Origin: Candidatus Limnocylindria bacterium
Lineage (GTDB): Bacteria > Chloroflexota > Limnocylindria > QHBO01
Reading direction: 5' to 3'
Length of the DNA stretch: 63,810 bases
Assembly (NCBI GenBank): GCA_036380455.1
Contig: DASVEQ010000035.1
Coordinates: 1 to 63,810 of the forward strand
Below the pieces are notes generated by a model that was not told the origin of the DNA, did not search any database, and worked only from the letters and a program-made list of their open reading frames with translations. A program made the position numbers and the translations under genes. Of this stretch, positions 28,111 to 54,742 are shown piece after piece (the first letter of the stretch is position 1; each line of letters starts with the position of its first letter).

Positions 28111-28263
28111 GCGGCCCGTGGCGCCTGATCGCTGGCAGCAGTCACCGCCCGCGGATGAGGCGCGGCCCGTGGCGCCTGATCGCTGGCAGCAGTCACCGCC
28201 CGCGGTTGGGGCGCGGCCCGTGGCGCCTGATCGCTGGCAGCAGTCACCGCCCGCGGTTGAGGG
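28111..28263. repeat. Tandem repeat, 51-bp unit x3 (GCGGCCCGTGGCGCCTGATCGCTGGCAGCAGTCACCGCCCGCGGWTGRGGS), related to the array at 2031-2202
   Basis: TGGCGCCTGA recurs at 28119, 28170 and 28221. The array is intergenic, between the HAD and GNAT genes. Confidence 0.95.
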
Positions 28264-30361: not shown

Positions 30362-31090
30362 TCAGGCGTCGACCACTTCGATCCGGATCCGCTTGTTGAT
30401 CCGGCCCTTGCTCTCGTAGCCGGTCACCTTCACCCGTCCGATCTCGCCGGTGTGCGCCACGTGGGTTCCGCCATCGGCCTGGAGGTCGAGTCCGACGATC
30501 TCGATGGTCCGAACCTCGACGATGTCCTCGGGGAGGAGGTTGATCTTCGTGCGGATGAGATCGGGGATTGCGAAGGCCTCCTCGCGCGGCAGGATGGCGA
30601 CGCGGATCTCGCGTTCGGCGGCGATCTCCTCGTTGACGCGCCGCTCGATTTCCTCGACGAGGTCACCGGACATCGTCTCGAACTCGAAGTCCATGCGGCC
30701 CGACAGCGGCTCCATGTTGCCCCCGGTGACCGATGCCTGATGATCGCGCCACACGACGCCGCACAGGACGTGGAGCGCGGAGTGGGTGCGCATGAGCTGG
30801 TGGCGGCGCTCCCAGTCGATCTCGGCGGTGACCCGCGTGTCGACCGCCGGCAGCCCCTCGCCCTCGGCGACGGTGTGCCAGATGTCTTCGTCACGCCGCT
30901 TCGCGCCAACGACCCGCCACGAGCCGCCGGCGTCGCCGATGAGCTGGCCGGTGTCCGCCGGTTGCCCGCCGCCGCCGGGATAGAAGACCGTTCGGTCCAG
31001 GAGCACGGCGTGGGCCTCGGCATCGGTTTCGACGACCATCGCCTCGGCCTGGCGCGCATACGCATCGGTGTAACAGACGTTCTCGCTCAT
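30362..31090 (-). CDS. alaX: AlaX-type alanyl-tRNA editing protein
   Basis: FYPGGGGQP and the HxxxH motif (THSALHVL) are present. The second Zn motif reads DGGTH rather than the CGGTH I expected. Start at ATG 31090. Confidence 0.8.
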   Translation of the reverse strand: MSENVCYTDAYARQAEAMVVETDAEAHAVLLDRTVFYPGGGGQPADTGQLIGDAGGSWRVVGAKRRDEDIWHTVAEGEGLPAVDTRVTAEIDWERRHQLMRTHSALHVLCGVVWRDHQASVTGGNMEPLSGRMDFEFETMSGDLVEEIERRVNEEIAAEREIRVAILPREEAFAIPDLIRTKINLLPEDIVEVRTIEIVGLDLQADGGTHVAHTGEIGRVKVTGYESKGRINKRIRIEVVDA

Positions 31091-31155
31091 CGTGCCCAAG
31101 GCTAACGCAAGACGACGATCGCCACGGCCACACCCAGATTGAGCATCTGCGGTGC

Positions 31156-31413
31156 GTGGGGACTCATACTTCACACACGGCTCCGAGGGTTCCGCTGCCC
31201 GGATCCCGGACGGTGGATGCTCCGTGCGCACGACGTGGAACGGTCGACGAGGTCTCCCGCGTCTCCGCGCACCGCGAGCACGACCGGATCTGGATCATCG
31301 ACGTGAACGGCACGCGCCTGGTCCTCACCGCGTTCGCCATTCGCGACGCGACCGATGAGCAACGCGATGAGCTCCGCGCGATGGTCGAGTCCGTTCGGAT
31401 CGAAGCACCCTGA
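31156..31413 (+). pseudogene. Probable remnant (C-terminal ~65 aa) of a fourth ECF-partner paralogue
   Basis: ...DAPC...HREHDRIWIIDVNGTRLVLTAFAIRDATDEQRDELRAMVESVRIEAP matches the C-terminal motif of the genes at 32354, 34688 and 36291. It has no signal peptide or TM helix and no sigma gene upstream. Confidence 0.45.
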
Positions 31414-31431
31414 GCCGGGAGGAGCGTTGTC

Positions 31432-31692
31432 ATGCCCACGTACCTCGACATGCACACCATGCCGGGTGTCACCACCAGTCACGTCCCGGGCGTCCCGAAC
31501 GATGCGGCGGAGCTTGGCGGCGAGGAGGCCGAGGTCCGCTCATTCGTTTGCGCGGGATACACGTGGCTCCAGATCACCGCCCTGCACGGGGGTAATGGGT
31601 ACGTCGTCTGGTTGGTGGCAACGGCCCCGCCCGACCCCGAGCAGCGCCCGATCAACGATCAGCTCCTGGGCACCTTCCGCTTCACCGACTGA
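31432..31692 (+). pseudogene. Chimeric or decayed ORF: DUF4242/SCO4226-like N-terminus (MPTYLDMHTMPGVT) joined to a C-terminus resembling the ECF-partner family (GYVVWLVATAPPDPEQRPINDQLLGTFRFTD)
   Basis: Motif-level resemblance only. It may still be expressed. Confidence 0.35.
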
Positions 31693-31723
31693 CGCGCTGC
31701 CGTGGCTTGCGCGGCGGGCCGAA

Positions 31724-31757
31724 GATTGAGTCCTGCCCTCGCCGATGCGCCCATACC
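31724..31757 (+). promoter_or_regulatory. Conserved upstream motif GATTGA-N20-CCCATACC, ~50 nt before sigma gene 1
   Basis: The same motif occurs with the same spacing upstream of sigma 2, and with N16 upstream of sigma 3. Confidence 0.45.
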
Positions 31758-31808
31758 CTGTGAGCGGGCCGGCCCGAGCGAACACCGGCCCGCAACGCGG
31801 ATGAGGGC

Positions 31809-32357
31809 ATGGACACCGATCTCGTGACTCGAGCACAGCGTGGCGACGAAGAGGCCTTCGCGAGCCTCGCCGTGGCCGCGGGCGATCGGCTCCACGCGGT
31901 TGCGCATCGAATTCTGCGTGACCTCGATCTCGCCGAGGACGCCACGCAGCAGGCGCTGCTGGCCATCTGGCGGGACCTCCCGCAGCTGCGCGACCCGGCA
32001 CGCTTCGATGCCTGGTCGTATCGGCTCCTCGTGCGCGCCTGCTACGCCGAGGGCCGACGTTCCCGCGCGTGGACCCCGAACATGCGCCTGCTTCCGTCCG
32101 ATGGACTGAGTCAGGCGGACGGCTCCAGCGCCGTCGCCGACCGCGACCAGCTGGAGCGTGGCTTCCGACGTCTCTCAATCGACCACCGCGCGGTGGTCGT
32201 GCTGCATCACTACCTCGACATGCCGCTCGACCGGGTTGCCGAAGCGCTCGGCATCCCGGCCGGCACGGCCCGATCGAGACTTCATCACGCGATGCGTGGG
32301 CTGCGCGCGGCTCTCGATGCCGACGCACGGCCGCCCGCTCGGGAGGTGGTGCAATGA
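31809..32357 (+). CDS. ECF-type RNA polymerase sigma-70 family factor (paralogue 1)
   Basis: Region 2 (DAEDATQQALLAIW, FDAWSYRLL) and region 4 (LDRVAEALGIPAGTARSRLHHA). The stop overlaps the next start (ATGA). Confidence 0.9.
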   Translation: MDTDLVTRAQRGDEEAFASLAVAAGDRLHAVAHRILRDLDLAEDATQQALLAIWRDLPQLRDPARFDAWSYRLLVRACYAEGRRSRAWTPNMRLLPSDGLSQADGSSAVADRDQLERGFRRLSIDHRAVVVLHHYLDMPLDRVAEALGIPAGTARSRLHHAMRGLRAALDADARPPAREVVQ

Positions 32358-33238
32358 GCACCGATCGCGAGACGACCCGCATCGTTCGGTCGTGGCTGGA
32401 GGACGGCGTCACCCAGCTCCCGGACAGCGTCCTGGACGCGGTGCTCGACGAGCTCCCCTCGACCCATCAGCGTCGCGCCACCTGGTGGCCGGCGCGGAGG
32501 CTGTTCCACATGAACAAGGCATTGGCTTACGGCGTCGTTGCCGCGACCGTCGTGATCGTCGCGATCCTCGGCATCAGCCTTCTCGCACCCACTGGCCCAA
32601 GTGTGGGAGACCAGGCTGAGAGCACGACCGCGACGCCGATTCCAACCCGCCCACGAACAGCGCCGACTGGTGGGCTCGAGCCGGGCACCTATCGCGTTGC
32701 CGAGTTCACCCTGCGCGCCTTCACGATCACCGTTCCGAGCGGCTGGAGCCGCGAGGACAACTTCCTGTCAACCGGGACAGGGACGGTCGAGACCGATGCG
32801 TTCGAGGGCGACAGCGTCTACCTGGCAACCTGGCCAGTCTCGCACGTGTACTCCGACTCGTGTCAGTGGGAAGGGTCGCTGCGTGAGGCGCGTTCCCTCG
32901 CCGAGCTCACTGAGGCGCTGGCCGAGCAGACCGGCCACGACACGACGGGCCCTGAGGAGACGCAGCTGGGCGGCTACCCTGCCACGCGGTTCGAGTTCTC
33001 CGTTCCCTCCGACTTCGACATCAGCGCCTGCGATCAGGAGTTCTTGCGGCTCTGGCCCGATGCGGGACCGAACGAGAACTTTGGACTTCCCATCACCGTC
33101 GGCCAAACGGCAACGGTCTACGTCGTGGACCTCGACGGCCAGGGCCAGCTGGTGATCGCCGGGCAAAAGGAAAGCTCGTCCGCAGCCGATGTCGCCGCGC
33201 TCGAAAGCGTCGTCTCATCGATCAGCTTCGAGCCTTGA
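32354..33238 (+). CDS. Single-pass membrane partner of the ECF sigma (putative non-ZAS anti-sigma) with an uncharacterised ~200-aa extracytoplasmic domain (paralogue 1)
   Basis: N-terminus MSTDRETTRIVRSWL...HQRRATWWPARR, TM helix ALAYGVVAATVVIVAILGISLL, two conserved Cys, and the C-terminal VYVVDLDGQGQLVIAG motif. Confidence 0.8.
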   Translation: MSTDRETTRIVRSWLEDGVTQLPDSVLDAVLDELPSTHQRRATWWPARRLFHMNKALAYGVVAATVVIVAILGISLLAPTGPSVGDQAESTTATPIPTRPRTAPTGGLEPGTYRVAEFTLRAFTITVPSGWSREDNFLSTGTGTVETDAFEGDSVYLATWPVSHVYSDSCQWEGSLREARSLAELTEALAEQTGHDTTGPEETQLGGYPATRFEFSVPSDFDISACDQEFLRLWPDAGPNENFGLPITVGQTATVYVVDLDGQGQLVIAGQKESSSAADVAALESVVSSISFEP

Positions 33239-33361
33239 CCATTCGCCCCCGCGGCGACGGACACCGGTCCAGATGTGCACCTTCACCTCTCAGAGCCGGC
33301 GGCACAGCCGCCGGCTCTGATACGCCGGCGTGGCCACCGTGTCCGGGTACCCCAGCGAACC

Positions 33362-33511
33362 GTGCCTGCGCGCTGCGCCGGCGGCGTGCTGCCCATCGGC
33401 GTGTCGTTCATCGGCGGCGCGCGGGACGAGCCGCAGCTCATCGGCTTCGCCTACGACTTCGAGCAGGCGACGCTGGTCCGGCTCCCCCCGCCGTTCCTCT
33501 CGACGCTCGAC
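33362..33511 (+). pseudogene. Remnant of an amidase (amidase-signature family, GatA-like) C-terminus
   Basis: VPARCAGGVLPIGVSFIGGARDEPQLIGFAYDFEQATLV resembles the conserved ...GLPIGLQLIG..FDE..LL..AYAFEQAT terminus. No upstream amidase body is present. Confidence 0.4.
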
Positions 33512-33517
33512 TGCGGT

Positions 33518-34036
33518 CTACCAGCGCTCATCGTGAACGAGCGATTCGAGCGGTAGCCGTCCACCCGTTCGGTTCGGCGCGGTCAGCTTCGCCGGATCGG
33601 CAGGATGGCCGAACGAGAGGAGAAAGTCGCATCGGCGGTCGTCCGGAAGTCCGAGCAGCCGATGCGCGAGCTCATGGTCGTAGACCGTGGCCGGCACGCT
33701 GCCGATGCCAAGCTCCCACGCGGCCAGCACCATGTTCTGCGCCGCCCGGCCGGCATCCCACATCACGGAGTTGTTGTAGTGGCCCGATGCGTCGGACGTG
33801 ACCATCGCGATCGCCACCGTCGCGCCGGCGAGATGGCCCGCGTAGTGGCCGACGGCGGCCAGCTCTCGGAGGTGCTCTCGGTCGCGGAGCACGATGAAGG
33901 CCCAGTGCTGGTCATTCTTCGAGCTCCCGGTCCGCCGCCCTGCGTTGAGGATGCGCTCCAGGTGTTTCTCCTCAATCGGCTCGTCGCTGAACTTCCGCAC
34001 CACGCGGACGGTGTTGATCGCCTGCCATGTCTCCAT
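33518..34036 (-). CDS. Nitroreductase-family protein
   Basis: AINTVRVVRKFSDEPIEEKHLERILNAGRRTGSSKNDQHW is a typical nitroreductase N-terminus. Start at ATG 34036. Confidence 0.8.
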   Translation of the reverse strand: METWQAINTVRVVRKFSDEPIEEKHLERILNAGRRTGSSKNDQHWAFIVLRDREHLRELAAVGHYAGHLAGATVAIAMVTSDASGHYNNSVMWDAGRAAQNMVLAAWELGIGSVPATVYDHELAHRLLGLPDDRRCDFLLSFGHPADPAKLTAPNRTGGRLPLESLVHDERW

Positions 34037-34060
34037 CGGTCCATGATCGCGCATCGGCCG

Positions 34061-34094
34061 GATTGAAGATTTCACCGGCCCGGCGTCCCATACC
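34061..34094 (+). promoter_or_regulatory. Conserved upstream motif GATTGA-N20-CCCATACC, ~49 nt before sigma gene 2
   Basis: See 31724..31757. Confidence 0.45.
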
Positions 34095-34142
34095 GTGTGA
34101 CGCGCATCGGTCTGAACCGATGCGGCCAGGTGGAAGAGGCCG

Positions 34143-34691
34143 ATGGATACCGATCTCGTGGTCCGAGCCCAGCGAGGAGACAAGGCGGCGTATGCCGACC
34201 TTGCCTTCGGGATCGCGGACCGGTTCCTGGCCGTGGCGCGCAGGATCCTGCGCGACATCGACCTCGCCGAGGATGCGACGCAGCAGTCGCTGCTGAGCAT
34301 CTGGCAGGACCTTCCACAGCTGCGCGACCCGGCCCGCTTCGAGGCCTGGTCGTATCGCATCCTCCTTCGCGCCTGCTACGCGGAGGGGCGGAAGCAGCGC
34401 CGCTGGGCACCGAACCTTCGCCTCCTGCCGGCTGACGAGCCGGCGCGCGGCGACGGGATGAGCTCGGTCGTCGATCGCGACCAGCTCGAGAGCGGCTTCC
34501 GCCGCCTCTCCTTCGATCATCGAGCGGTGGTGGTCCTGCACCACTACCTCGACCTGCCGATCGACCGAGTCGCCGACCTGCTCGGCATCCCGGTCGGGAC
34601 GGCCCACTCTCGACTTCATTACGCGATGCGCGGGCTGCGCGCGGCACTCGATGCCGATGAGCGGCATCCGACGCAGGAGGCTGCCCGATGA
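34143..34691 (+). CDS. ECF-type sigma factor (paralogue 2)
   Basis: Highly similar to 31809..32357 by eye (both begin MDTDLV.RAQRGD). ATGA overlap with its partner gene. Confidence 0.9.
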   Translation: MDTDLVVRAQRGDKAAYADLAFGIADRFLAVARRILRDIDLAEDATQQSLLSIWQDLPQLRDPARFEAWSYRILLRACYAEGRKQRRWAPNLRLLPADEPARGDGMSSVVDRDQLESGFRRLSFDHRAVVVLHHYLDLPIDRVADLLGIPVGTAHSRLHYAMRGLRAALDADERHPTQEAAR

Positions 34692-35614
34692 GCACCGATC
34701 GCGACACCACGCGCATCGTTCGGTCGTGGCTGACAACGGACGAGAACGAGTCTGCGGACCGCATCCTCGGCACCGTGCTCGATCGACTCGACACGACCCC
34801 ACAGCGCCGAGCCACCTGGTGGCTGGCGCGGAGGTTCTCCGATATGCACACGTTCGCGAAGGTCGCGATCGCGGCCGCCGCCGTCGTGGCCCTCTTGCTG
34901 GTCGGCATCGTGTTGCTCCCCGGATCCCGACCGAGTGTCGGCGAACCGGATGCGTCCGCTTCTGCGAGCGCTTTGCCATCGGTGCCGCCGACTCCGTCTG
35001 AGCCGTCACCGACGCCGGATGCCGCTTTTCCGCCCACGGGAGAGCTTGCGATCGGGACGCACCGCGTGACGCTCAGCGGCGTGCGGGTCATCTTCGACCT
35101 CACGACCGACGGCTGGGTTAGCAACGGGTCGTTCGGCATCGACAAGGGCAGGCCCGAGGCTCCGGAGTCAGCCGGGTTCATCTTCTGGTCGCTCTCGGCA
35201 CCCGACACCGTCTTCGCCGACCCGTGTACGGGCGTGCCGCTCAGCCCTGCGCCGGAACCATCGATTGCCGCACTCGCGGCGGCGGTGGCGAGCCTGCCGG
35301 GCACGGAGCTCGTCATTGGTCCGACGGAGGTGACGGTGGGCGGATATCCGGCCCAGCATGTGGCAATCATGGTGCCCGACGACATCGGCTGTGAGCCGAA
35401 CGAGTTCTACCTGTGGGAGGACACCGACAACCCCGGTCAAGCCCGATACGCCACTGACAAGGGATCGACGATCCACACGTGGATCATTGACGTTGACGGG
35501 CGCCTCGTCTGGATCGACGGCGAGACATACGCGGCCTCCGATCCGGCGGCGGAGCGGGAAATCCTGGAGATCATCGGCTCGATCCGTTTCAGGCAAGACC
35601 AGGGTCCGGGATAG
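34688..35614 (+). CDS. Single-pass membrane partner of the ECF sigma (paralogue 2)
   Basis: MSTDRDTTRIVRSWL...PQRRATWWLARR, a TM helix, two Cys, and IHTWIIDVDGRLVWIDG...IIGSIRF. Confidence 0.8.
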   Translation: MSTDRDTTRIVRSWLTTDENESADRILGTVLDRLDTTPQRRATWWLARRFSDMHTFAKVAIAAAAVVALLLVGIVLLPGSRPSVGEPDASASASALPSVPPTPSEPSPTPDAAFPPTGELAIGTHRVTLSGVRVIFDLTTDGWVSNGSFGIDKGRPEAPESAGFIFWSLSAPDTVFADPCTGVPLSPAPEPSIAALAAAVASLPGTELVIGPTEVTVGGYPAQHVAIMVPDDIGCEPNEFYLWEDTDNPGQARYATDKGSTIHTWIIDVDGRLVWIDGETYAASDPAAEREILEIIGSIRFRQDQGPG

Positions 35615-35679
35615 GCCGGGGTTCAGGCTAGCGCGGGGTCGAGCCGGCCCCAGCCAACGGGCACCAGGGTGCGAGTTTC

Positions 35680-35709
35680 GATTGACTTCTGCCGCTTCAC
35701 GCTCATACC
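35680..35709 (+). promoter_or_regulatory. Related upstream motif GATTGA-N16-CTCATACC (also reads as TTGACT-N18-TACCTA) before sigma gene 3
   Basis: Read directly; it lies 43 nt before GTG 35752. Confidence 0.45.
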
Positions 35710-35751
35710 TATCAGGCGGGCCAATTAAGGACCGCATCTCGAGGCAGGATC

Positions 35752-36294
35752 GTGGAGCGGCAGCTGGTGGTACAGGCGCAGCAGGGCGACCAGGACGCCT
35801 TCGACCAGCTCGCCTACCACCTGGCGGATCGGCTCTACTCGGTCGCCTACCGCATCCTGCGGAACGGACCCAGCGCCGAGGACGCGACGCAGCAGGCACT
35901 GGTCGATGTCTGGCGCCACCTCCCGTCGCTTCGCGACCCTGACCGTTTCGACGCCTGGGCGTATCGGCTGCTGGTGCATGCCGCCTACGCCGAACACCGC
36001 CGCCGACGTCGGCAGGCTCCTCCGGGAGCCCTGACCGATGGCGCAACCGACACCGATCCCTACCCATCGGTCCATGATCGGGACCAGCTGGAGCGGGGAT
36101 TCGCCCGACTGACCGCCGAGCACCGTGCCGTCCTCGTCCTGCAGCACTACCTGGACATGACCCACGACGAGATGGCCGAGGTGCTGGGCGTCCCCGTGGG
36201 CACCGTTCGTTCGCGACTGCATGGCGCCCGCGGAGCCATGCGTGCCGCGCTCGAAGCCGATGCCCGGCCGGCGACGGGGGAGTGGTCGGCATGA
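35752..36294 (+). CDS. ECF-type sigma factor (paralogue 3, more divergent)
   Basis: Region 2 and region 4 motifs (AEDATQQALVDVW, MAEVLGVPVGTVRSRLHGA). GTG start and ATGA overlap with its partner gene. Confidence 0.9.
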   Translation: MERQLVVQAQQGDQDAFDQLAYHLADRLYSVAYRILRNGPSAEDATQQALVDVWRHLPSLRDPDRFDAWAYRLLVHAAYAEHRRRRRQAPPGALTDGATDTDPYPSVHDRDQLERGFARLTAEHRAVLVLQHYLDMTHDEMAEVLGVPVGTVRSRLHGARGAMRAALEADARPATGEWSA

Positions 36295-37151
36295 ACGACC
36301 GCAGCATCGACCAGCTTCTCGATGCGTGGATGGATCTGGGGCCGACGGTCGCGCCCGCCCGGGTTGCCGAGGCCGCGCGCCACGAGGCCCGCTCCACGCG
36401 CCAGACCGCCAGCCTGCGTGGCTGGCCACCGCGGAGGTTTCCCGAGATGAACGCCATGGTCCGACTTGGAGTCGCTGCAGCCATCGTGGCCGCAGCCGCC
36501 GTACTCGGCTTCACATATTTCGCCGATCGGAACGTTGGTGACCCCGACCCAACAGATTCGACTCCTTCGCCGGCGGGGCTCTTGAACGAACAGGAGGGCC
36601 CGCTCGAGCCGGGATCCGCCTACCTCATCGACGGTGTCCCGGGCATGCGGATCATCGTCACCGCCCCCGAGGGGTGGGTGAAGAACTTCATCTCGGACAC
36701 CATCTGGACGAGCGGCTCGGTGGCCCACGTCGGATTCGGCACTGTGGACAACCTGCAAGCCAACCCCTGCGTTGCCGCCGAGGGCGAAATGGACCCGCCG
36801 GTGGGACCGAGCGTGAGCGACTTTGTCGCTGGGCTGGGCCGGCTGCCCGGCTTGGACGCAACCAGTTCTGAGGTCACAGTCTCAGGATTCCCGGGCACCC
36901 ACGTGGAGCTCACGGTCACGGATCCGATCGACGGCTGCTACCGGGATGCCGACGGCGGCATCTGGGAGCTTCCCAACGGAGAGTTCGCTCCGCCACCCGG
37001 GCCGTTCGCTCGCCACCACTTCTGGGTCGTCGACGTCCAGGGAACGCGCCTCGTGATCTCCGCGGAGATCCGTTCGGCCGGTACCCTGCAGGACCAGGCT
37101 GACGTTGACTCGATCATCGAGTCGCTCCACGTCGAGGCAACATCCCCGTAA
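36291..37151 (+). CDS. Single-pass membrane partner of the ECF sigma (paralogue 3)
   Basis: The N-terminal domain is followed by TM helix VRLGVAAAIVAAAAVLGF, then an extracytoplasmic domain with two Cys and HHFWVVDVQGTRLVISAE. Confidence 0.8.
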   Translation: MNDRSIDQLLDAWMDLGPTVAPARVAEAARHEARSTRQTASLRGWPPRRFPEMNAMVRLGVAAAIVAAAAVLGFTYFADRNVGDPDPTDSTPSPAGLLNEQEGPLEPGSAYLIDGVPGMRIIVTAPEGWVKNFISDTIWTSGSVAHVGFGTVDNLQANPCVAAEGEMDPPVGPSVSDFVAGLGRLPGLDATSSEVTVSGFPGTHVELTVTDPIDGCYRDADGGIWELPNGEFAPPPGPFARHHFWVVDVQGTRLVISAEIRSAGTLQDQADVDSIIESLHVEATSP

Positions 37152-37223
37152 CCGCGCGGAGCCCGGGCACCCGACCGTCGATGCGGTCGGGTGCCGCTGC
37201 CTTCGATTTGGCACCATGTACCC

Positions 37224-38885
37224 ATGAGCTTAGCCACCGCACAGGACGCCTTCTTCGCGGGCTTCTTCAGTCACTACCCGACCCACGCCACCGAGGCGGG
37301 CAACCACGAGCACGATCTTCTATGGCCTGACCTGACCGATGCGGGCCGAGAGGAGCGCCTTGGCTGGCTGGCCGAGATCCGGCGCACCATCGAGGGTGCC
37401 GAGGGACTGACCCGCGACGAGGAGATCGACCGGCGCGTCCTGCTGGGCACCATCGACGAGCTGCGCTTCGAGGAGGAGGACCTCGACGAGCTGTCGTGGA
37501 GCCCGATCGTGTACAGCTACCTGCTGGGCGGCGGCCTCTTCGCGCTTCTGTCGCGCGAGTTCGCCCCGCTGGGTGAGCGGCTGGCCAGCGCTGCCGGTCG
37601 CATGGAGGGCATCCCGGCGGCGCTCGACGCAGCCATGTCGAATCTCACCTCCGGCCGTGGCAGAGCGGTCAGTGGCTTCCACGTCGAGAAGGCGATCCAG
37701 ACCATCCCGGGCGTCTCCGACCTGTGCCGCACGGCGGTGGAGATGGCGAAGGACGTCGACGAGTACACGAGTGGACGCGTCGCCGCTGCGGGCGAGACCG
37801 CCATAGCGGCGGTCGAGGCGTTCACCGCATGGCTCCGCGACGACCTGCTGCCCAGCGCCGACGGCGACTTCCGCCTCGGCCGAGACCTGTACGAGCGCAA
37901 GTTCGCGGCGGTCCTCAAGGCCACGATCAGCCCCGCCGAGCTGGAGCAGCGCGCCGCGAAGGCATACGACGACGTCCGCGGCGAGATGCTGCGGCTCGCC
38001 CGCGAGCTGTGGCCGCTCTGGATCGGCGACGAGCCGATGCCCGAGGATCCCGACGCGCTCACGCGCCGGGTGCTCGACGCCATCGCGGTCGACCATCCGA
38101 AGGCCGATGAGCTGCTCGACTTCTGCCGCGCCGAGCACGATCGGATCCTCGCCTTCGTCCGCGAGCGCGACCTCATCGGTCTGCCGGACGACCCGCTCCA
38201 GATCATCTGGACCCCGCCCTTCCTGCGCGCCTTCGGCGGCGCGATGCTCATCCCGCCGGGGCCGCTGGACAAGGGCCTCGACAGCTTCTTCGCCATCACG
38301 CCGCCGCCGGAGTCATGGACCGATGAGCAGGTGGAGTCGATGCTCCGCGAGAACAACGCCCGCTCGCTGAAGGTCCTCACCGTTCACGAAGCGACGCCCG
38401 GGCACTACCTGCAGCTGGCCTGGTCGAACCGATGCGAATCCCTGCCGCGCGCGGTCTTCGGCTCCGGCGTCTTCGCCGAGGGCTGGGCCGTGTACGTGAC
38501 GCAGGTGATGATGGATGCGGGGTACGCCGATTGCGACCCCGCCCTCCTGCTCGCGCACTGGAAGTACTACCTGCGCGCGGTCACCAACGCGCTCATGGAC
38601 ATCCGCATCCACACGGGCTCGATGACCGAGGACGACGCAATGTCGATGATGGTGGACGGCGGCTTCCAGGAGCGATCGGAAGCGTCGGAGAAATGGAATC
38701 GAGCACGCCTGTCGTCGACGCAGCTGTGCTCCTACTTCCTCGGCGGCGCGGAGATGACTGAGCTGGAGCACGAGGCCCAACGCCGATCCGGCGATGCCTT
38801 CGAGTGGCGGCCCTTCCTCGAGTCGGTGATCAGTCACGGGACGCCGCCGATGCCGATCATCCGCGACATCCTGTACGGCGACTGA
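37224..38885 (+). CDS. DUF885-family protein (second paralogue)
   Basis: HEATPGHYLQ motif. Similar to 22073..23704 along its whole length. Confidence 0.8.
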   Translation: MSLATAQDAFFAGFFSHYPTHATEAGNHEHDLLWPDLTDAGREERLGWLAEIRRTIEGAEGLTRDEEIDRRVLLGTIDELRFEEEDLDELSWSPIVYSYLLGGGLFALLSREFAPLGERLASAAGRMEGIPAALDAAMSNLTSGRGRAVSGFHVEKAIQTIPGVSDLCRTAVEMAKDVDEYTSGRVAAAGETAIAAVEAFTAWLRDDLLPSADGDFRLGRDLYERKFAAVLKATISPAELEQRAAKAYDDVRGEMLRLARELWPLWIGDEPMPEDPDALTRRVLDAIAVDHPKADELLDFCRAEHDRILAFVRERDLIGLPDDPLQIIWTPPFLRAFGGAMLIPPGPLDKGLDSFFAITPPPESWTDEQVESMLRENNARSLKVLTVHEATPGHYLQLAWSNRCESLPRAVFGSGVFAEGWAVYVTQVMMDAGYADCDPALLLAHWKYYLRAVTNALMDIRIHTGSMTEDDAMSMMVDGGFQERSEASEKWNRARLSSTQLCSYFLGGAEMTELEHEAQRRSGDAFEWRPFLESVISHGTPPMPIIRDILYGD

Positions 38886-52048: not shown

Positions 52049-54742
52049 ATGAGCGGTCCATGGGACCGGCCGACCCCGGATCCGGATGCGGACTGGCCCA
52101 CGGAGGACCTCGAGCCCTCTCGGCAGCCTGACCCGCAGCAGTCCGAGGGCGACGCGTGGGCCTCCGCTCCCGGAGATCTCTGGCCGGACTCGTCGCCCGA
52201 CGCCGCGCCGGCCTGGGGCGACTGGTCAGCACCCGCGCAACCTGACGAATACGTCGTCGACGAGCCTCAGCCCACGCTGAGCGATCCGTGGGCTGAGTCC
52301 TGGACCGACGAGGCTCCCGATCCGTTCGCCCCGTCCGGTGAGCCGCGGCTCGACGACCGCCGTGAGGCGGTGCCGGCGGCGCCGATCGAGGAGCCCACGG
52401 TTCCAATCGACCGTGCGCCGCCCGAGCCGGAAGCCCCATGGCGTCCCGCGGCGCCGTCGGAGGACGAGGCGCCCGAGGCCGATGCCCCGATCGCCGAGAC
52501 GGACACCGCACGCTGGATGCCCCCCGAGGAGCCTGCCCCGCCGGCCATCGAGCCGTGGGCCGTCGACACGGATCCATGGGGTTCCGCCGCGCCCGTCGAG
52601 CCGGCGATCGACGAAGCGCCCGTCGACACGGCGGCGGTCGACGAGGGGACCTCCGATGTCGCGGCACCGCCGGATGAGCCGGCGGTGGCCGAGGCACTCC
52701 CGGAGGAGCCGGATGCCGGCGAGCCGATCGCGCCCGCGCCGCGAACCGCTCCCTCGTGGCTGCCCGATTGGCTCGCGGAGCCGCTTCCGGAAGCCGAGCC
52801 CGAGCCCGAACCAGGGCCGGATCTCGAGCCGGAGCCGGAACCCGAACCGGAGCCGGAACCCGAACCGGAGCCGGAACCCGGGCCGGATCTCGAGCCGGAG
52901 CCAGAACCCGAACCGGAGCTCGAGCCTGAGCCCGAACCGGAACCCGAACCGGAGCCGGAACCCGAACCGGAGCCGGAACCCGAACCGGAGCCGGAACCCG
53001 AACCGGAGCTGGAACCCGAACCGGAGCCGGAACCCGAGCCCGAACCCGAACCCGAACCGGAGCCGGAACCGGAGCCCGAGCCGGAGCCTGTTGTCGCCGA
53101 CGACGCGGCGCCCGTCGCGAGCTGGCGGCGGTTCGTACCGTGGCCAGCCTCAGCCGTACCCACCGTGCCGGACGCGGAGCCTGGGGCCGAGGCGGAACCC
53201 GAGCCGGAGCCCGAGCCTGAACTGGAACCGGAGCCGCAACCCGAGCGAGAACCGGAGCCGGAGCCCGAGCCAGAACCGGATCCCGAAACCGGGTCTGCGT
53301 GGGACAACGATGAGCTGTGGCCAACACCAGCTCCACCGGACGTCGCGGAGTCCGAATCCGTGGCCGACGCGCCGTGGCCTCCCATCTCTCCGTGGGCCAC
53401 GCCGACCGCCGAGGTCGACGAGATCGAAACCCAGCCGGGGACAGCCGGACCGCACCCGGGGACGGAGGCCCCCGAGTCGACACAGGTGTTCCCAACCTCC
53501 TGGTCGCCGGCACCGCCACCCGCCGTCGATGAACGTCGCGTCCTCGAGCCGGTGGAGGGCGAGGCGCGGACGCGGCTGGCGATCCCGGACGCTGACCTCG
53601 ACGAACAGGGGGAGCCGGAACCGTCCACCGCCGAGCAGGCAGTGCCGTGGCTCATCGGCTTCATCCTGCTGCTGGCGGGAATGGTGATCGTGCTGTTGGC
53701 GCTGATCTTCGCCGGAGACGAGTCGCTGGGGGCCGGGGGGCCGGGCGCATCGGCGTCCGAACCGGCGGTGGCCTCCCCGACCGTGGCGGCAACGACGCCG
53801 CCGACGCCGGAGCCGAGCAACACGGACGATCCCGACGGCAGCGCATCGCCGTCGGAGGCGGCAGTGCCCGCACCCGAGTTCGGGCCGCTCGAGATGGTCT
53901 ACCAGGGTCGGGCGGCGGCGCTCGCGCCGATCTACCTGCTGCGCCACGACTTCACGACCGAGGACGAGCCTTTCACGATGGCCCAGGATCCCAGCCTCGA
54001 CGTGCGACGTTTCGCCTGGGCGCCGGACGGCACGGTGGGCGCCGGGCTGCTCGCCGACATCCTCGTCTCGATCGAGGAGGGCGAGGACAAGCGACGGCTC
54101 GGCGACGAGATCGTCACCATCACCTTCGGCAAGAACGCTTCCACGGTGTACGCGGTGCGGATCACGGAGGATGGGGCGAATGACGTCGCGACGGTCCTCG
54201 CGATCGACTTCGCGTCCGGCGAGACGGACGAGCTGGCGAGCATCAACTATCCACGTCCGGAGATCGCGGCGGAGGCCGCGTTGGCCGAAGCGCAGTTCGC
54301 CGATGACGGCGGCGCGGTGCGCCTGTACTGGATGCGCTCCGGCTCGCTGCGCCTCTGGGCGCTCGGCGGCGGCACGTGGGACATCGACCCGGCGAGCGGC
54401 GCGGTGACGGACCTGGAGGAGGCCGTGCCCGCCCTATGGGCGCCCGACGGCCGCCAGCGGATCTCGATGAGCGAGGACGGCGGCACGACCACCATCACGG
54501 TAGTCGACGCCGACGACGAGACGCTGGCCACCACGACCGCCGACGGGCTGGTGAGCCACATCCGATGGTCGCCGGACGGCGAGCGCGTCGTGTTCACGCT
54601 CGGTCGATCGGCATCGGGCGGCGGCATTCTCCAGGACCTCTTCCTCTGGGACCTCGGCAAAGAACCGCCGATGCAGCTGACCTCGACCGGCGCCGCCTTC
54701 GGCGCCGAGTGGCTCGGCGCGTCCGCGCGCTGGCAGGACTGA
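52049..54742 (+). CDS. Large acidic protein: ~530-aa Trp/Pro/Asp/Glu-rich disordered N-terminus with (Glu-Pro)n tracts, one TM helix, and a PD40/TolB-like beta-propeller-type C-terminal domain
   Basis: There is no N-terminal signal peptide. TM helix [25 protein letters not shown]. The C-terminal repeats include WAPDG, WAPDGRQ and [10 protein letters not shown]. Confidence 0.8.
52793..53089 (+). repeat. In-CDS hexanucleotide-based repeat encoding ~100 residues of (Glu-Pro)n with an embedded [22 protein letters not shown] higher-order repeat
   Basis: GAGCCG/GAACCC iterations read directly. Confidence 0.9.
53175..53290 (+). repeat. Second in-CDS (Glu-Pro)n tract
   Basis: It encodes [32 protein letters not shown]. 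Confidence 0.85.

Follow-up and report, generated by a model that had tools for sequence, protein, structure and literature searches.

Three sigma factor operons in tandem

The stretch of DNA analyzed here, which we call the window, comprises 63,810 nucleotides (contig DASVEQ010000035.1 of GenBank assembly GCA_036380455.1) from a Candidatus Limnocylindria bacterium, and its G+C content is about 70%. It carries three paralogous gene pairs in tandem on the forward strand. In each pair, a gene for an extracytoplasmic function (ECF) sigma factor (sig1, sig2 or sig3) is followed by a gene for a putative single-pass membrane protein (par1, par2 or par3). We assign a probability of about 0.72 to the interpretation that these pairs are three paralogous modules, each composed of an ECF sigma factor and its membrane anti-sigma factor, that belong to a Limnocylindria-specific family.

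The first pair consists of sig1 (31809-32357, 182 amino acids) and par1 (32354-33238, 294 amino acids), the second of sig2 (34143-34691, 182 amino acids) and par2 (34688-35614, 308 amino acids), and the third of sig3 (35752-36294, 180 amino acids, with a GTG start codon) and par3 (36291-37151, 286 amino acids). The sigma genes were recognized with Pfam and NCBIfam models. The assignment of par1 and par3 as putative anti-sigma factors and sensors is based on identity comparison, profile matches and a hydrophobic helix, and that of par2 on its homologues, their alignment, an AlphaFold2 model and Foldseek searches. An initial annotation of this DNA had proposed that the genes of each pair are translationally coupled; indeed, each sigma stop codon overlaps the partner's start codon as ATGA, at 32354, 34688 and 36291. 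Directly 5' of each partner start, there is a GGAGG-like ribosome-binding site. No further sigma or partner gene copies were found elsewhere in the window.

The sigma factors

The three sigma proteins contain the Pfam domains Sigma70_r2 and Sigma70_r4_2 and no other Pfam domain. The sigma-3 region is missing from all of them, so that only regions sigma-2 and sigma-4 are present. They score 57.4, 52.0 and 76.7 bits with the model TIGR02937 (sigma70-ECF), and all three thus pass its cut-off of 42.9 bits. No model of a named ECF subfamily was matched above its cut-off; the best, TIGR02983 (SigE-fam_strep) and PRK12518, gave scores of 100 to 116 bits, which are under their cut-offs of 141.55 and 208. 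The nearest solved structures are those of SigW, SigL, SigE and SigH, among which SigW is the best match (E = 2.5e-21). By domain content and model score, sig1, sig2 and sig3 are classified as ECF (group 4) sigma-70 factors.

A cytoplasmic module that co-diverges with the sigma factor

Each partner has a single hydrophobic helix at about residues 56 to 78, which separates a short N-terminal segment from a larger outer domain. This order of cytoplasmic N-terminus, membrane helix and outer domain is the standard architecture of membrane anti-sigma factors (PMC7406223). The N-terminal module follows the consensus M.T.RD.TRIVRSWL..G...LPDRVLDAVLD....TPQRR..WPA.R...MN. As the initial annotation had stated, the zinc motif HxxxCxxC does not occur in the three partners, and we found that their cytoplasmic segments contain no Cys at all. 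Searches with 59 N-termini (E <= 1) and with 53 full-length homologues gave no match to the anti-sigma families of Pfam, and the N-terminal module matched none of the NCBIfam anti-sigma models or solved anti-sigma factors. Nor did the module match any other entry of Pfam, NCBIfam or PDB. We also considered membership of the partners in the ZAS or class I (ASDI) groups and rejected it, based on the lack of a family-model match, the lack of a zinc motif and the prediction of three helices rather than a four-helix domain. A search of a large protein database with a 58-residue N-terminal profile returned short fragments only, and was uninformative on architectures or taxonomy.

For an analysis of pairs, we extracted the genes located 3' of 98 sigma genes of the family. 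The ATGA overlap is present in 83 of these 98 pairs, and 89 of the 98 partners carry the same N-terminal module. A PsbP-like outer domain (see below) occurs in 49 partners. Other outer domains that are attached to the same N-terminus include a type of about 130 amino acids that we call "VDLECTRT", PD40/TolB-like beta-propellers, Kelch-like repeats and a "YGY..YP..W" type, among others.

Co-evolution was assessed with 41 pairs that carry the PsbP-like type of outer domain. Divergence of the sigma factors is correlated with that of the partner N-termini (Pearson r = 0.76), and the clusters formed by the two are nearly the same (adjusted Rand index (ARI) 0.97). For sigma factor versus outer domain, the corresponding values are 0.16 and 0.11. 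A single sigma cluster carries more than 10 outer-domain clusters. Conversely, one outer-domain cluster, with 60% to 74% internal identity, sits on sigma factors that are only about 51% identical, including those of two adjacent pairs in locus L028. The same boundary is visible in the DNA of pairs 1 and 2, for which homology of 75% to 82% covers the sigma gene and the partner N-terminus (31809-32516 versus 34143-34850) and then collapses.

The simplest reading of these comparisons is that the sigma factor and the N-terminus form a co-evolving sigma/anti-sigma unit, and that the outer domain is exchanged or diverges much faster. Because the outer domain does not track the sigma factor while the N-terminus does, the sensor domains appear to have been exchanged. 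A more far-reaching version of this idea, which we offer tentatively and regard as rather doubtful, is that the sigma factor and the module of about 50 amino acids constitute a fixed, co-evolving "chassis" whose anti-sigma domain would be of a kind not classified before. Outer domains (PsbP-like subtypes, beta-propellers, Kelch-like repeats and others) would then have been swapped repeatedly by recombination in the Pro/Ser-rich linker, giving genome-wide arrays of sensors on closely related promoters, with the orphan sensor 3' ends of this window as by-products or donors.

Instead of being an anti-sigma factor, the partner could be an envelope protein that is co-transcribed with the sigma factor and serves as its output or as a positive co-regulator, with the sigma factor controlled in some other way. 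Such a role would fit the shortness of the N-terminal module, the low confidence with which it is modeled and its lack of detectable similarity to known anti-sigma domains. It would not readily account for an N-terminus that co-diverges tightly with the sigma factor when the remainder of the same protein does not, nor for the fusion of this N-terminus to many unrelated outer domains. The frequent ATGA coupling and the standard anti-sigma architecture noted above likewise argue for an anti-sigma role, and we consider a non-anti-sigma partner quite unlikely.

In several loci from metagenome-assembled genomes (MAGs), namely, L026, L031, L035, L055, L056, L018, L010 and L025, the partner open reading frame (ORF) turns Arg/Pro-rich and out of frame after the N-terminal module. 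These broken ORFs could be assembly frameshift errors or real decay, and they inflate the apparent count of "short" partners.

The outer domain

Exactly two Cys residues are present in each partner, and both are located in the outer domain (residues 170/226 of par1, 180/235 of par2 and 160/216 of par3). The initial annotation had noted two conserved Cys residues, and both are in fact invariant in 53 homologues. An invariant Cys pair in an extracytoplasmic domain suggests a disulfide.

With these 53 homologues, AlphaFold2 produced a model of par2 with a mean predicted local distance difference test (pLDDT) score of 84.7. In this model, short N-terminal helices at residues 4-16, 20-36 and 40-50 have low confidence (pLDDT 54-70). 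Next come a membrane helix (55-76), a linker that is disordered and rich in Pro and Ser (77-115), and an alpha/beta outer domain of about 190 amino acids (116-305) with pLDDT scores of 93 to 99. Foldseek searches of PDB with the par2 outer domain were led by Tsi3 (the best match, E = 4.9e-4) and the cyanobacterial and plant protein PsbP (E = 8.4e-4), and further matches include Apa, DcrB, LpqN, Mog1 and EagT6/SciW. The matches have probabilities of about 1.0, template modeling (TM) scores of 0.43 to 0.56 when normalized to the target, and about 10% sequence identity. The outer domain is thus predicted with high confidence to be a remote member of the PsbP/Mog1/DcrB/LpqN-like fold group.

The initial annotation had described this domain as uncharacterized, which holds at the sequence level. 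None of the three partners or 53 homologues matched the Pfam families of the PsbP-like group, and no Pfam, NCBIfam or PDB sequence match to the outer domain was obtained (including with a profile search of PDB sequences), despite a partner family with 7423 cluster representatives. No fusion of a PsbP/Mog1-group protein to an anti-sigma module is known, and full-text literature searches found no report that links anti-sigma factors to PsbP, DcrB, LpqN or DUF1795.

A promoter-like motif upstream of the sigma genes

A motif shared by the upstream regions of all three sigma genes had been noticed in the initial annotation. The pattern GATTGA-N(14-22)-CNCATACC has exactly three matches in 63.8 kb, at 31724, 34061 and 35680, compared with 0.00 expected, and these lie 51, 48 and 42 nucleotides 5' of the start codons of sig1, sig2 and sig3. 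The individual sites, which were located by the motif scan and alignment of upstream regions, are GATTGAGTC-N-CCCATACC for pair 1 (31724-31757), GATTGAAGA-N-CCCATACC for pair 2 (34061-34094) and GATTGACTT-N-CTCATACC for pair 3 (35680-35709). All are on the forward strand, and the spacer of the last is 4 nucleotides under the family norm. A relaxed form of the motif gives four matches in the window, with 0.00 expected; the fourth, at 31137-31169, is 5' of a short ORF that is discussed below.

When 80 homologous upstream regions were anchored on C[AG]TA[CG], only the blocks cGAAgATTGA(A/G)t and CCCATACCgTgTGA were conserved, and the spacer that intervenes was found to be without information. Between the T of TGA and the C of CATAC, the distance is 26 for 50 of these regions and 25 for 17. 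In the window, it is 25 for sig1, sig2 and the fourth copy, and 21 for sig3, which is an outlier. More distant members of the family have a classical TGAACG/GGAAC at the same position. Within 791 kb of sequence, consisting of the loci and the window, 55 of the 64 matches to TTGA-N20-23-CC[AG]TAC lie 30 to 75 nucleotides 5' of a sigma gene of the family. In dozens of genomes, homologous sigma genes are preceded by the conserved motif at a fixed spacing. The motif is likely to be the autoregulated promoter of the sigma operon, as the initial annotation had suggested.

The -35-like block of the presumed promoter consists of TTGA and the three bases that follow, and the -10-like block is CCCATAC; their spacing is atypical for an ECF promoter with an AAC -35 and a CGT-like -10. 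The motif might also be read as a housekeeping promoter (TTGACA/TAnnnT). We rejected this assignment, because its spacer would be 23 nucleotides. We found no sigma-70-type promoters or convincing terminators.

The three bases after TTGA track the sigma subfamily (adjusted mutual information (AMI) 0.58, which was reached by 0 of 1000 permutations). In the sig1 cluster, 27 of 28 members have GTC; the sig2 cluster has AGN or CAA, and a further cluster has AGG in 8 of 8 cases. In the window, they are GTC for pair 1, AGA for pair 2 and CTT for pair 3. Cross-talk among the three sigma factors is possible. However, because these bases differ among the three promoters and track the sigma subfamily, there may be at least partial insulation at the level of the promoter.

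Some non-sigma genes that lie beside sigma loci are also preceded by the motif (L019 3732-4817, L058 3805-4846, L066 3806-4848, L008 393-1940 and L036 2873-4362). They code for secreted PD40/TolB-like beta-propellers (312 to 335 amino acids) and amidohydrolase-like proteins (474 to 495 amino acids), and are candidate members of the regulon.

A predicted leader hairpin

In almost every member of the family, a stem-loop is predicted about 8 nucleotides past the -10-like block, with a variable sequence in which complementarity is maintained. In the window, the predicted stem-loops are on the forward strand, 5' of sig1 (31764-31793, -24.4 kcal/mol, z = -2.9), sig2 (34103-34124, of the GCATCGGTC/TGAA/CCGATGC type) and sig3 (35716-35735), the last being weaker (-9.4 kcal/mol, z = -1.7). 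When 80 leaders were folded separately, the mean z score was -2.1. For a 7-base-pair helix that was named by hand, the AU and GC forms are swapped at a ratio of 22:22 and the CG and UA forms at 24:23, and none of 500 shuffles reached the covariation score. This family covariation applies to the sig1 and sig2 stem-loops. RNAalifold predicted no structure for a MAFFT alignment of the leaders, and an Rfam scan of positions 31000 to 37300 yielded nothing relevant; the hairpin has no Rfam family. If transcription starts just past the -10-like block, the hairpin would be at the 5' end of the mRNA. Hairpins in this position stabilize transcripts.

In some of the roughly 80 homologous leaders (loci L001 to L081), the sequence GTGTGA can also pair with a downstream ACAC/ATAC-GG.

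Since the GTGTGA that takes part in this pairing follows the -10-like block, the pairing would place it inside the transcript, and one might ask whether the conserved blocks are an operator for another regulator or a structured leader RNA, with a coincidental likeness to -35 and -10 elements, rather than the sigma factor's own promoter. The -35-like block without AAC and the atypical spacing, which is different for sig3, could be cited in favor of this explanation. On the other hand, promoters typically have two blocks a fixed distance apart and a spacer that is not constrained, as seen here, distant family members have the classical elements at the same position, and the variable bases beside TTGA track the sigma subfamily. 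Moreover, there is no Rfam match, and the motif is also present 5' of a few non-sigma genes. We therefore judge an operator or leader RNA to be unlikely, and continue to regard the motif as the probable promoter of the sigma factor's own operon.

Proposed mechanism

In function, the modules look like an ordinary stress-signaling system, with a standard ECF sigma factor and a single-pass anti-sigma factor. The cytoplasmic N-terminus of about 50 residues would probably bind and sequester its own sigma factor, and the outer domain of about 190 residues, with its probable disulfide, would serve as the sensor. The sigma factor would be freed when the outer domain meets a signal, probably a ligand or protein derived from the cell envelope, and most likely because the partner undergoes regulated proteolysis. 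Once released, the sigma factor would steer RNA polymerase to the promoter of its own operon, consisting of TTGA, three subfamily-specific bases and CCCATACC, which would result in positive feedback. The transcript would probably begin with the stabilizing stem-loop. Physical binding of sigma factor and partner is inferred, and so are the way in which the sigma factor is released, the point where transcription starts and the kind of signal.

Several points weigh against this interpretation. The N-terminal module of about 50 amino acids matches no Pfam or NCBIfam anti-sigma model and no solved anti-sigma factor, and, with three predicted helices at pLDDT 54-70, it is shorter than class I anti-sigma domains. 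The similarity of the outer domain to known folds is remote (TM scores of 0.45 to 0.56 on the target and about 10% identity). The -35-like block does not contain the classical "AAC" of ECF promoters. When CATA is taken as the counterpart of CGTA in SigW-type promoters, the spacing is 3 to 4 nucleotides over the usual one, and the sig3 spacer is 4 nucleotides under the norm of its own family. Finally, shared ancestry could inflate both the association of motif and sigma subfamily and the covariation in the hairpin.

Distribution of the family

We scanned one genome per species with the sigma alignment and kept 79 loci, almost all from Candidatus Limnocylindria/Chloroflexota MAGs. At least 459 relatives were confirmed, nearly all of them from Limnocylindria/Chloroflexota MAGs. 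Arrays of two to five sigma genes of the family inside 10 kb are frequent (for example, L018, L029 and L070). At least 1460 relatives of par2 are present in the protein database, all of which are annotated as "hypothetical" and none of which has a Pfam domain; those that are named come nearly always from Chloroflexi/Chloroflexota MAGs. An exhaustive profile search placed 7423 cluster representatives at 50% identity in the partner family, 4271 of them with E <= 1e-10. On these counts, which bear out the lineage-specific expansion suggested initially, the module family is specific to Candidatus Limnocylindria (Chloroflexota) and hugely expanded there. Some proteins of the partner family have 490 to 717 amino acids and two or three tandem PsbP-like outer domains (P0195, P0199, P0211, P0221 and others).

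The number of sigma factors in Limnocylindria varies with habitat (PMC13212565). In full-text searches of the literature on ECF systems in Limnocylindria, we found nothing beyond such sigma counts.

Relics and rearrangement

Two short ORFs on the forward strand precede pair 1, and the initial annotation had proposed that both contain the C-terminal motif of the partners. This is correct for short ORF 1 (31156-31413), in which the last 42 or so residues align with the end of a partner's outer domain (profile E = 1.7e-5 and 3.4e-7; tblastn to other loci, E = 1.8e-9). Upstream, the fourth promoter-like motif (GATTGA-N20-CTCATAC, 31137-31169), found by the relaxed scan, is in register with the sigma promoters, and a GTG-GAT at about 31210 is in register with the ATG-GAT at sigma gene starts. 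The frame from this GTG runs into the outer-domain tail, a segment of about 45 codons (31279-31410). Based on profile, tblastn and alignment, positions 31210 to 31413 are best read as the remnant of a fourth module that has lost the sigma gene and most of the partner gene by deletion. At positions 1175 to 1260 of locus L004, a motif is accompanied by a hairpin and a Shine-Dalgarno-like leader, and no sigma ORF follows. This arrangement looks like a further orphan promoter relic similar to that at 31137.

For short ORF 2 (31432-31692), the proposal needs revision: the profile built from par2 homologues gives no match, and the similarity is instead to a different subtype. Its residues 19 to 86 (31486-31689) match residues 172 to 243 of a 243-amino-acid partner in locus L059, reciprocally (E = 7e-6 and 1.2e-5). 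Short ORF 2 is thus the 3' tail of a different subtype of sensor outer domain, and it has no sigma gene. The DUF4242-like N-terminus that the initial annotation assigned to it is not borne out, since no Pfam family matches even at E <= 5, and we rejected DUF4242 for this reason.

Rather than being dead, the short ORFs could code for small proteins with a function, such as decoys that arose from sensor tails and are secreted or remain in the cytoplasm. Short ORF 1 retains a promoter motif, a leader and an in-frame GTG-GAT start, and short ORF 2 has a good ribosome-binding site (GGAGGA). Yet we detected no signal peptide or membrane helix in either ORF, and each keeps only about 42 to 70 residues of a fold of about 190. 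In addition, tblastn searches of the loci placed both only within full-length partner genes, although free-standing copies were not specifically sought. We consider functional proteins improbable here, and favor the view that both ORFs are relics.

A truncated gene for an amidase follows pair 1, as had been noted. The fragment (33359-33511, forward strand) corresponds to the last 51 codons, matches positions 472 to 522 of the 529 positions of NCBIfam model PRK08137 (E = 1e-10), and is 67% identical to residues 487 to 537, that is, the last 51, of an intact 537-amino-acid amidase in the syntenic locus L004. The gene order in L004 is amidase, sigma factor (82% identical to sig2), partner, DUF885 gene (79% identical to the window copy) and beta-lactamase-like gene (63%). 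Compared with this locus, most of the amidase, which adjoins pair 1, is gone from the window, which has gained a nitroreductase-family gene on the opposite strand (33518-34048), and pair 3 sits between par2 and the DUF885 gene. The nitroreductase gene, recognized by Pfam and synteny, is located between the amidase relic and pair 2 and is outside the module. The initial annotation was right to call the locus rearranged: two partner genes are left only as 3' remnants, the amidase gene is truncated, and neither pair 3 nor the nitroreductase gene is present in L004.

By contrast, the description of the array as a recent expansion does not stand. The tandem arrangement, common motif and relics of extra copies nearby are what one might expect of recent local duplication. 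However, the pairwise identities among the three sigma factors are 74%, 59% and 55%, and those among the three partners are 34%, 28% and 25%. The 74% identity is that of sig1 and sig2, for which tblastn detected orthologues in other species with identities of 87% (sig1) and 84% (sig2). Similarly, par2 is 54% to 63% identical to its orthologues and 34% identical to par1. Because sig1 and sig2 are closer to orthologues in other species than to each other, the duplications predate speciation, and the paralogues, judged by these identities, are old rather than recent. Also, L004 has only a sig2-type pair between the amidase and the DUF885 gene. We consequently reject recent duplication as highly improbable. 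Because L004 holds the sig2-type pair alone at this position, pairs 1 and 3 came to be here by rearrangement of old paralogues rather than by new copying.

Several repeats are present in the window. An exact 17-nucleotide repeat, CCATCGGTCCATGATCG, occurs at 36064-36080, inside sig3 (codons PSVHDR), and at 34033-34049, where the nitroreductase gene on the opposite strand has its 5' end, just 5' of the sig2 promoter. It could be due to chance or could be a rearrangement microhomology. Arrays of a 51-nucleotide tandem repeat are found at 2033-2198 and 28111-28262, with 3.3 and 3.0 copies and 93% to 97% matches, and the second array is apparently intergenic. Their units share CGTGGCGCCTGA and an inverted element, CAGCGATCA/TGATCGCTG, and the two arrays may belong to one intergenic repeat family. 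An 18-nucleotide repeat, GAGCCGGAACCCGAACCG, is present in 16.4 copies at 52796-53286, flanked by related repeats of 6, 18 and 24 nucleotides.

Implications

These findings leave the understanding of ECF signaling unchanged. What is newly described is a sigma subfamily, a short cytoplasmic module outside current models, and an outer-domain family, absent from Pfam, that comprises more than 7000 cluster representatives (at 50% identity), in a group, Limnocylindria (CSP1-4/Ellin6529), of abundant, uncultured soil Chloroflexota. The family is also a testable case of modular sensor evolution, in which the part that would bind the sigma factor co-diverges with it, and the sensor part appears to be exchanged. 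Alignments of the family could seed new models for annotating thousands of "hypothetical proteins," and sets of sigma factor, promoter and partner could enlarge the stock of parts from which orthogonal ECF switches are built.

Comparison with known systems

The closest parallels are SigW-RsiW of Bacillus subtilis and SigK-RskA and SigL-RslA of Mycobacterium tuberculosis, whose sigma factors likewise contain only regions sigma-2 and sigma-4. Pairs of the SigW-RsiW type also have a co-translated partner, in which one membrane helix separates a cytoplasmic N-terminus from an outer domain, and a two-part motif 5' of the operon that is consistent with autoregulation. The partners described here differ in that the N-terminus has about 50 amino acids and three predicted helices, contains no zinc motif and matches no anti-sigma domain, and in that the outer domain is unrelated to those of SigW-RsiW-type partners. 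At the promoter, TTGA(GTC/AGA/CTT) and a longer spacing take the place of the TGAAAC/GGAAC -35 of SigW-type promoters.

A very short cytoplasmic sigma-binding segment, of less than about 50 amino acids, is characteristic of class II anti-sigma factors of the CnrY type (PMC7406223). The segment is similarly short here, when compared by description only, but CnrY-type factors are small proteins that work with a separate periplasmic sensor, whereas the module described here is fused to a large sensor.

The outer domain is predicted to have the same alpha/beta sandwich as the PsbP/Mog1/DcrB/LpqN/Apa/Tsi3/DUF1795 (EagT6, SciW) group, with Foldseek probabilities of 0.9 to 1.0 for dozens of members. 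Many members of this group are extracytoplasmic binding proteins. Nevertheless, the outer domain has about 10% identity to them, TM scores of about 0.5 and no match to the corresponding Pfam families.

RsiV gave no sequence or fold match to the partners in Foldseek and PDB profile searches. Conceptually, however, RsiV-SigV is analogous to the modules proposed here: RsiV is a single-pass anti-sigma factor with a globular alpha/beta outer domain that acts as a direct sensor, and this outer domain is reportedly itself the receptor for lysozyme.

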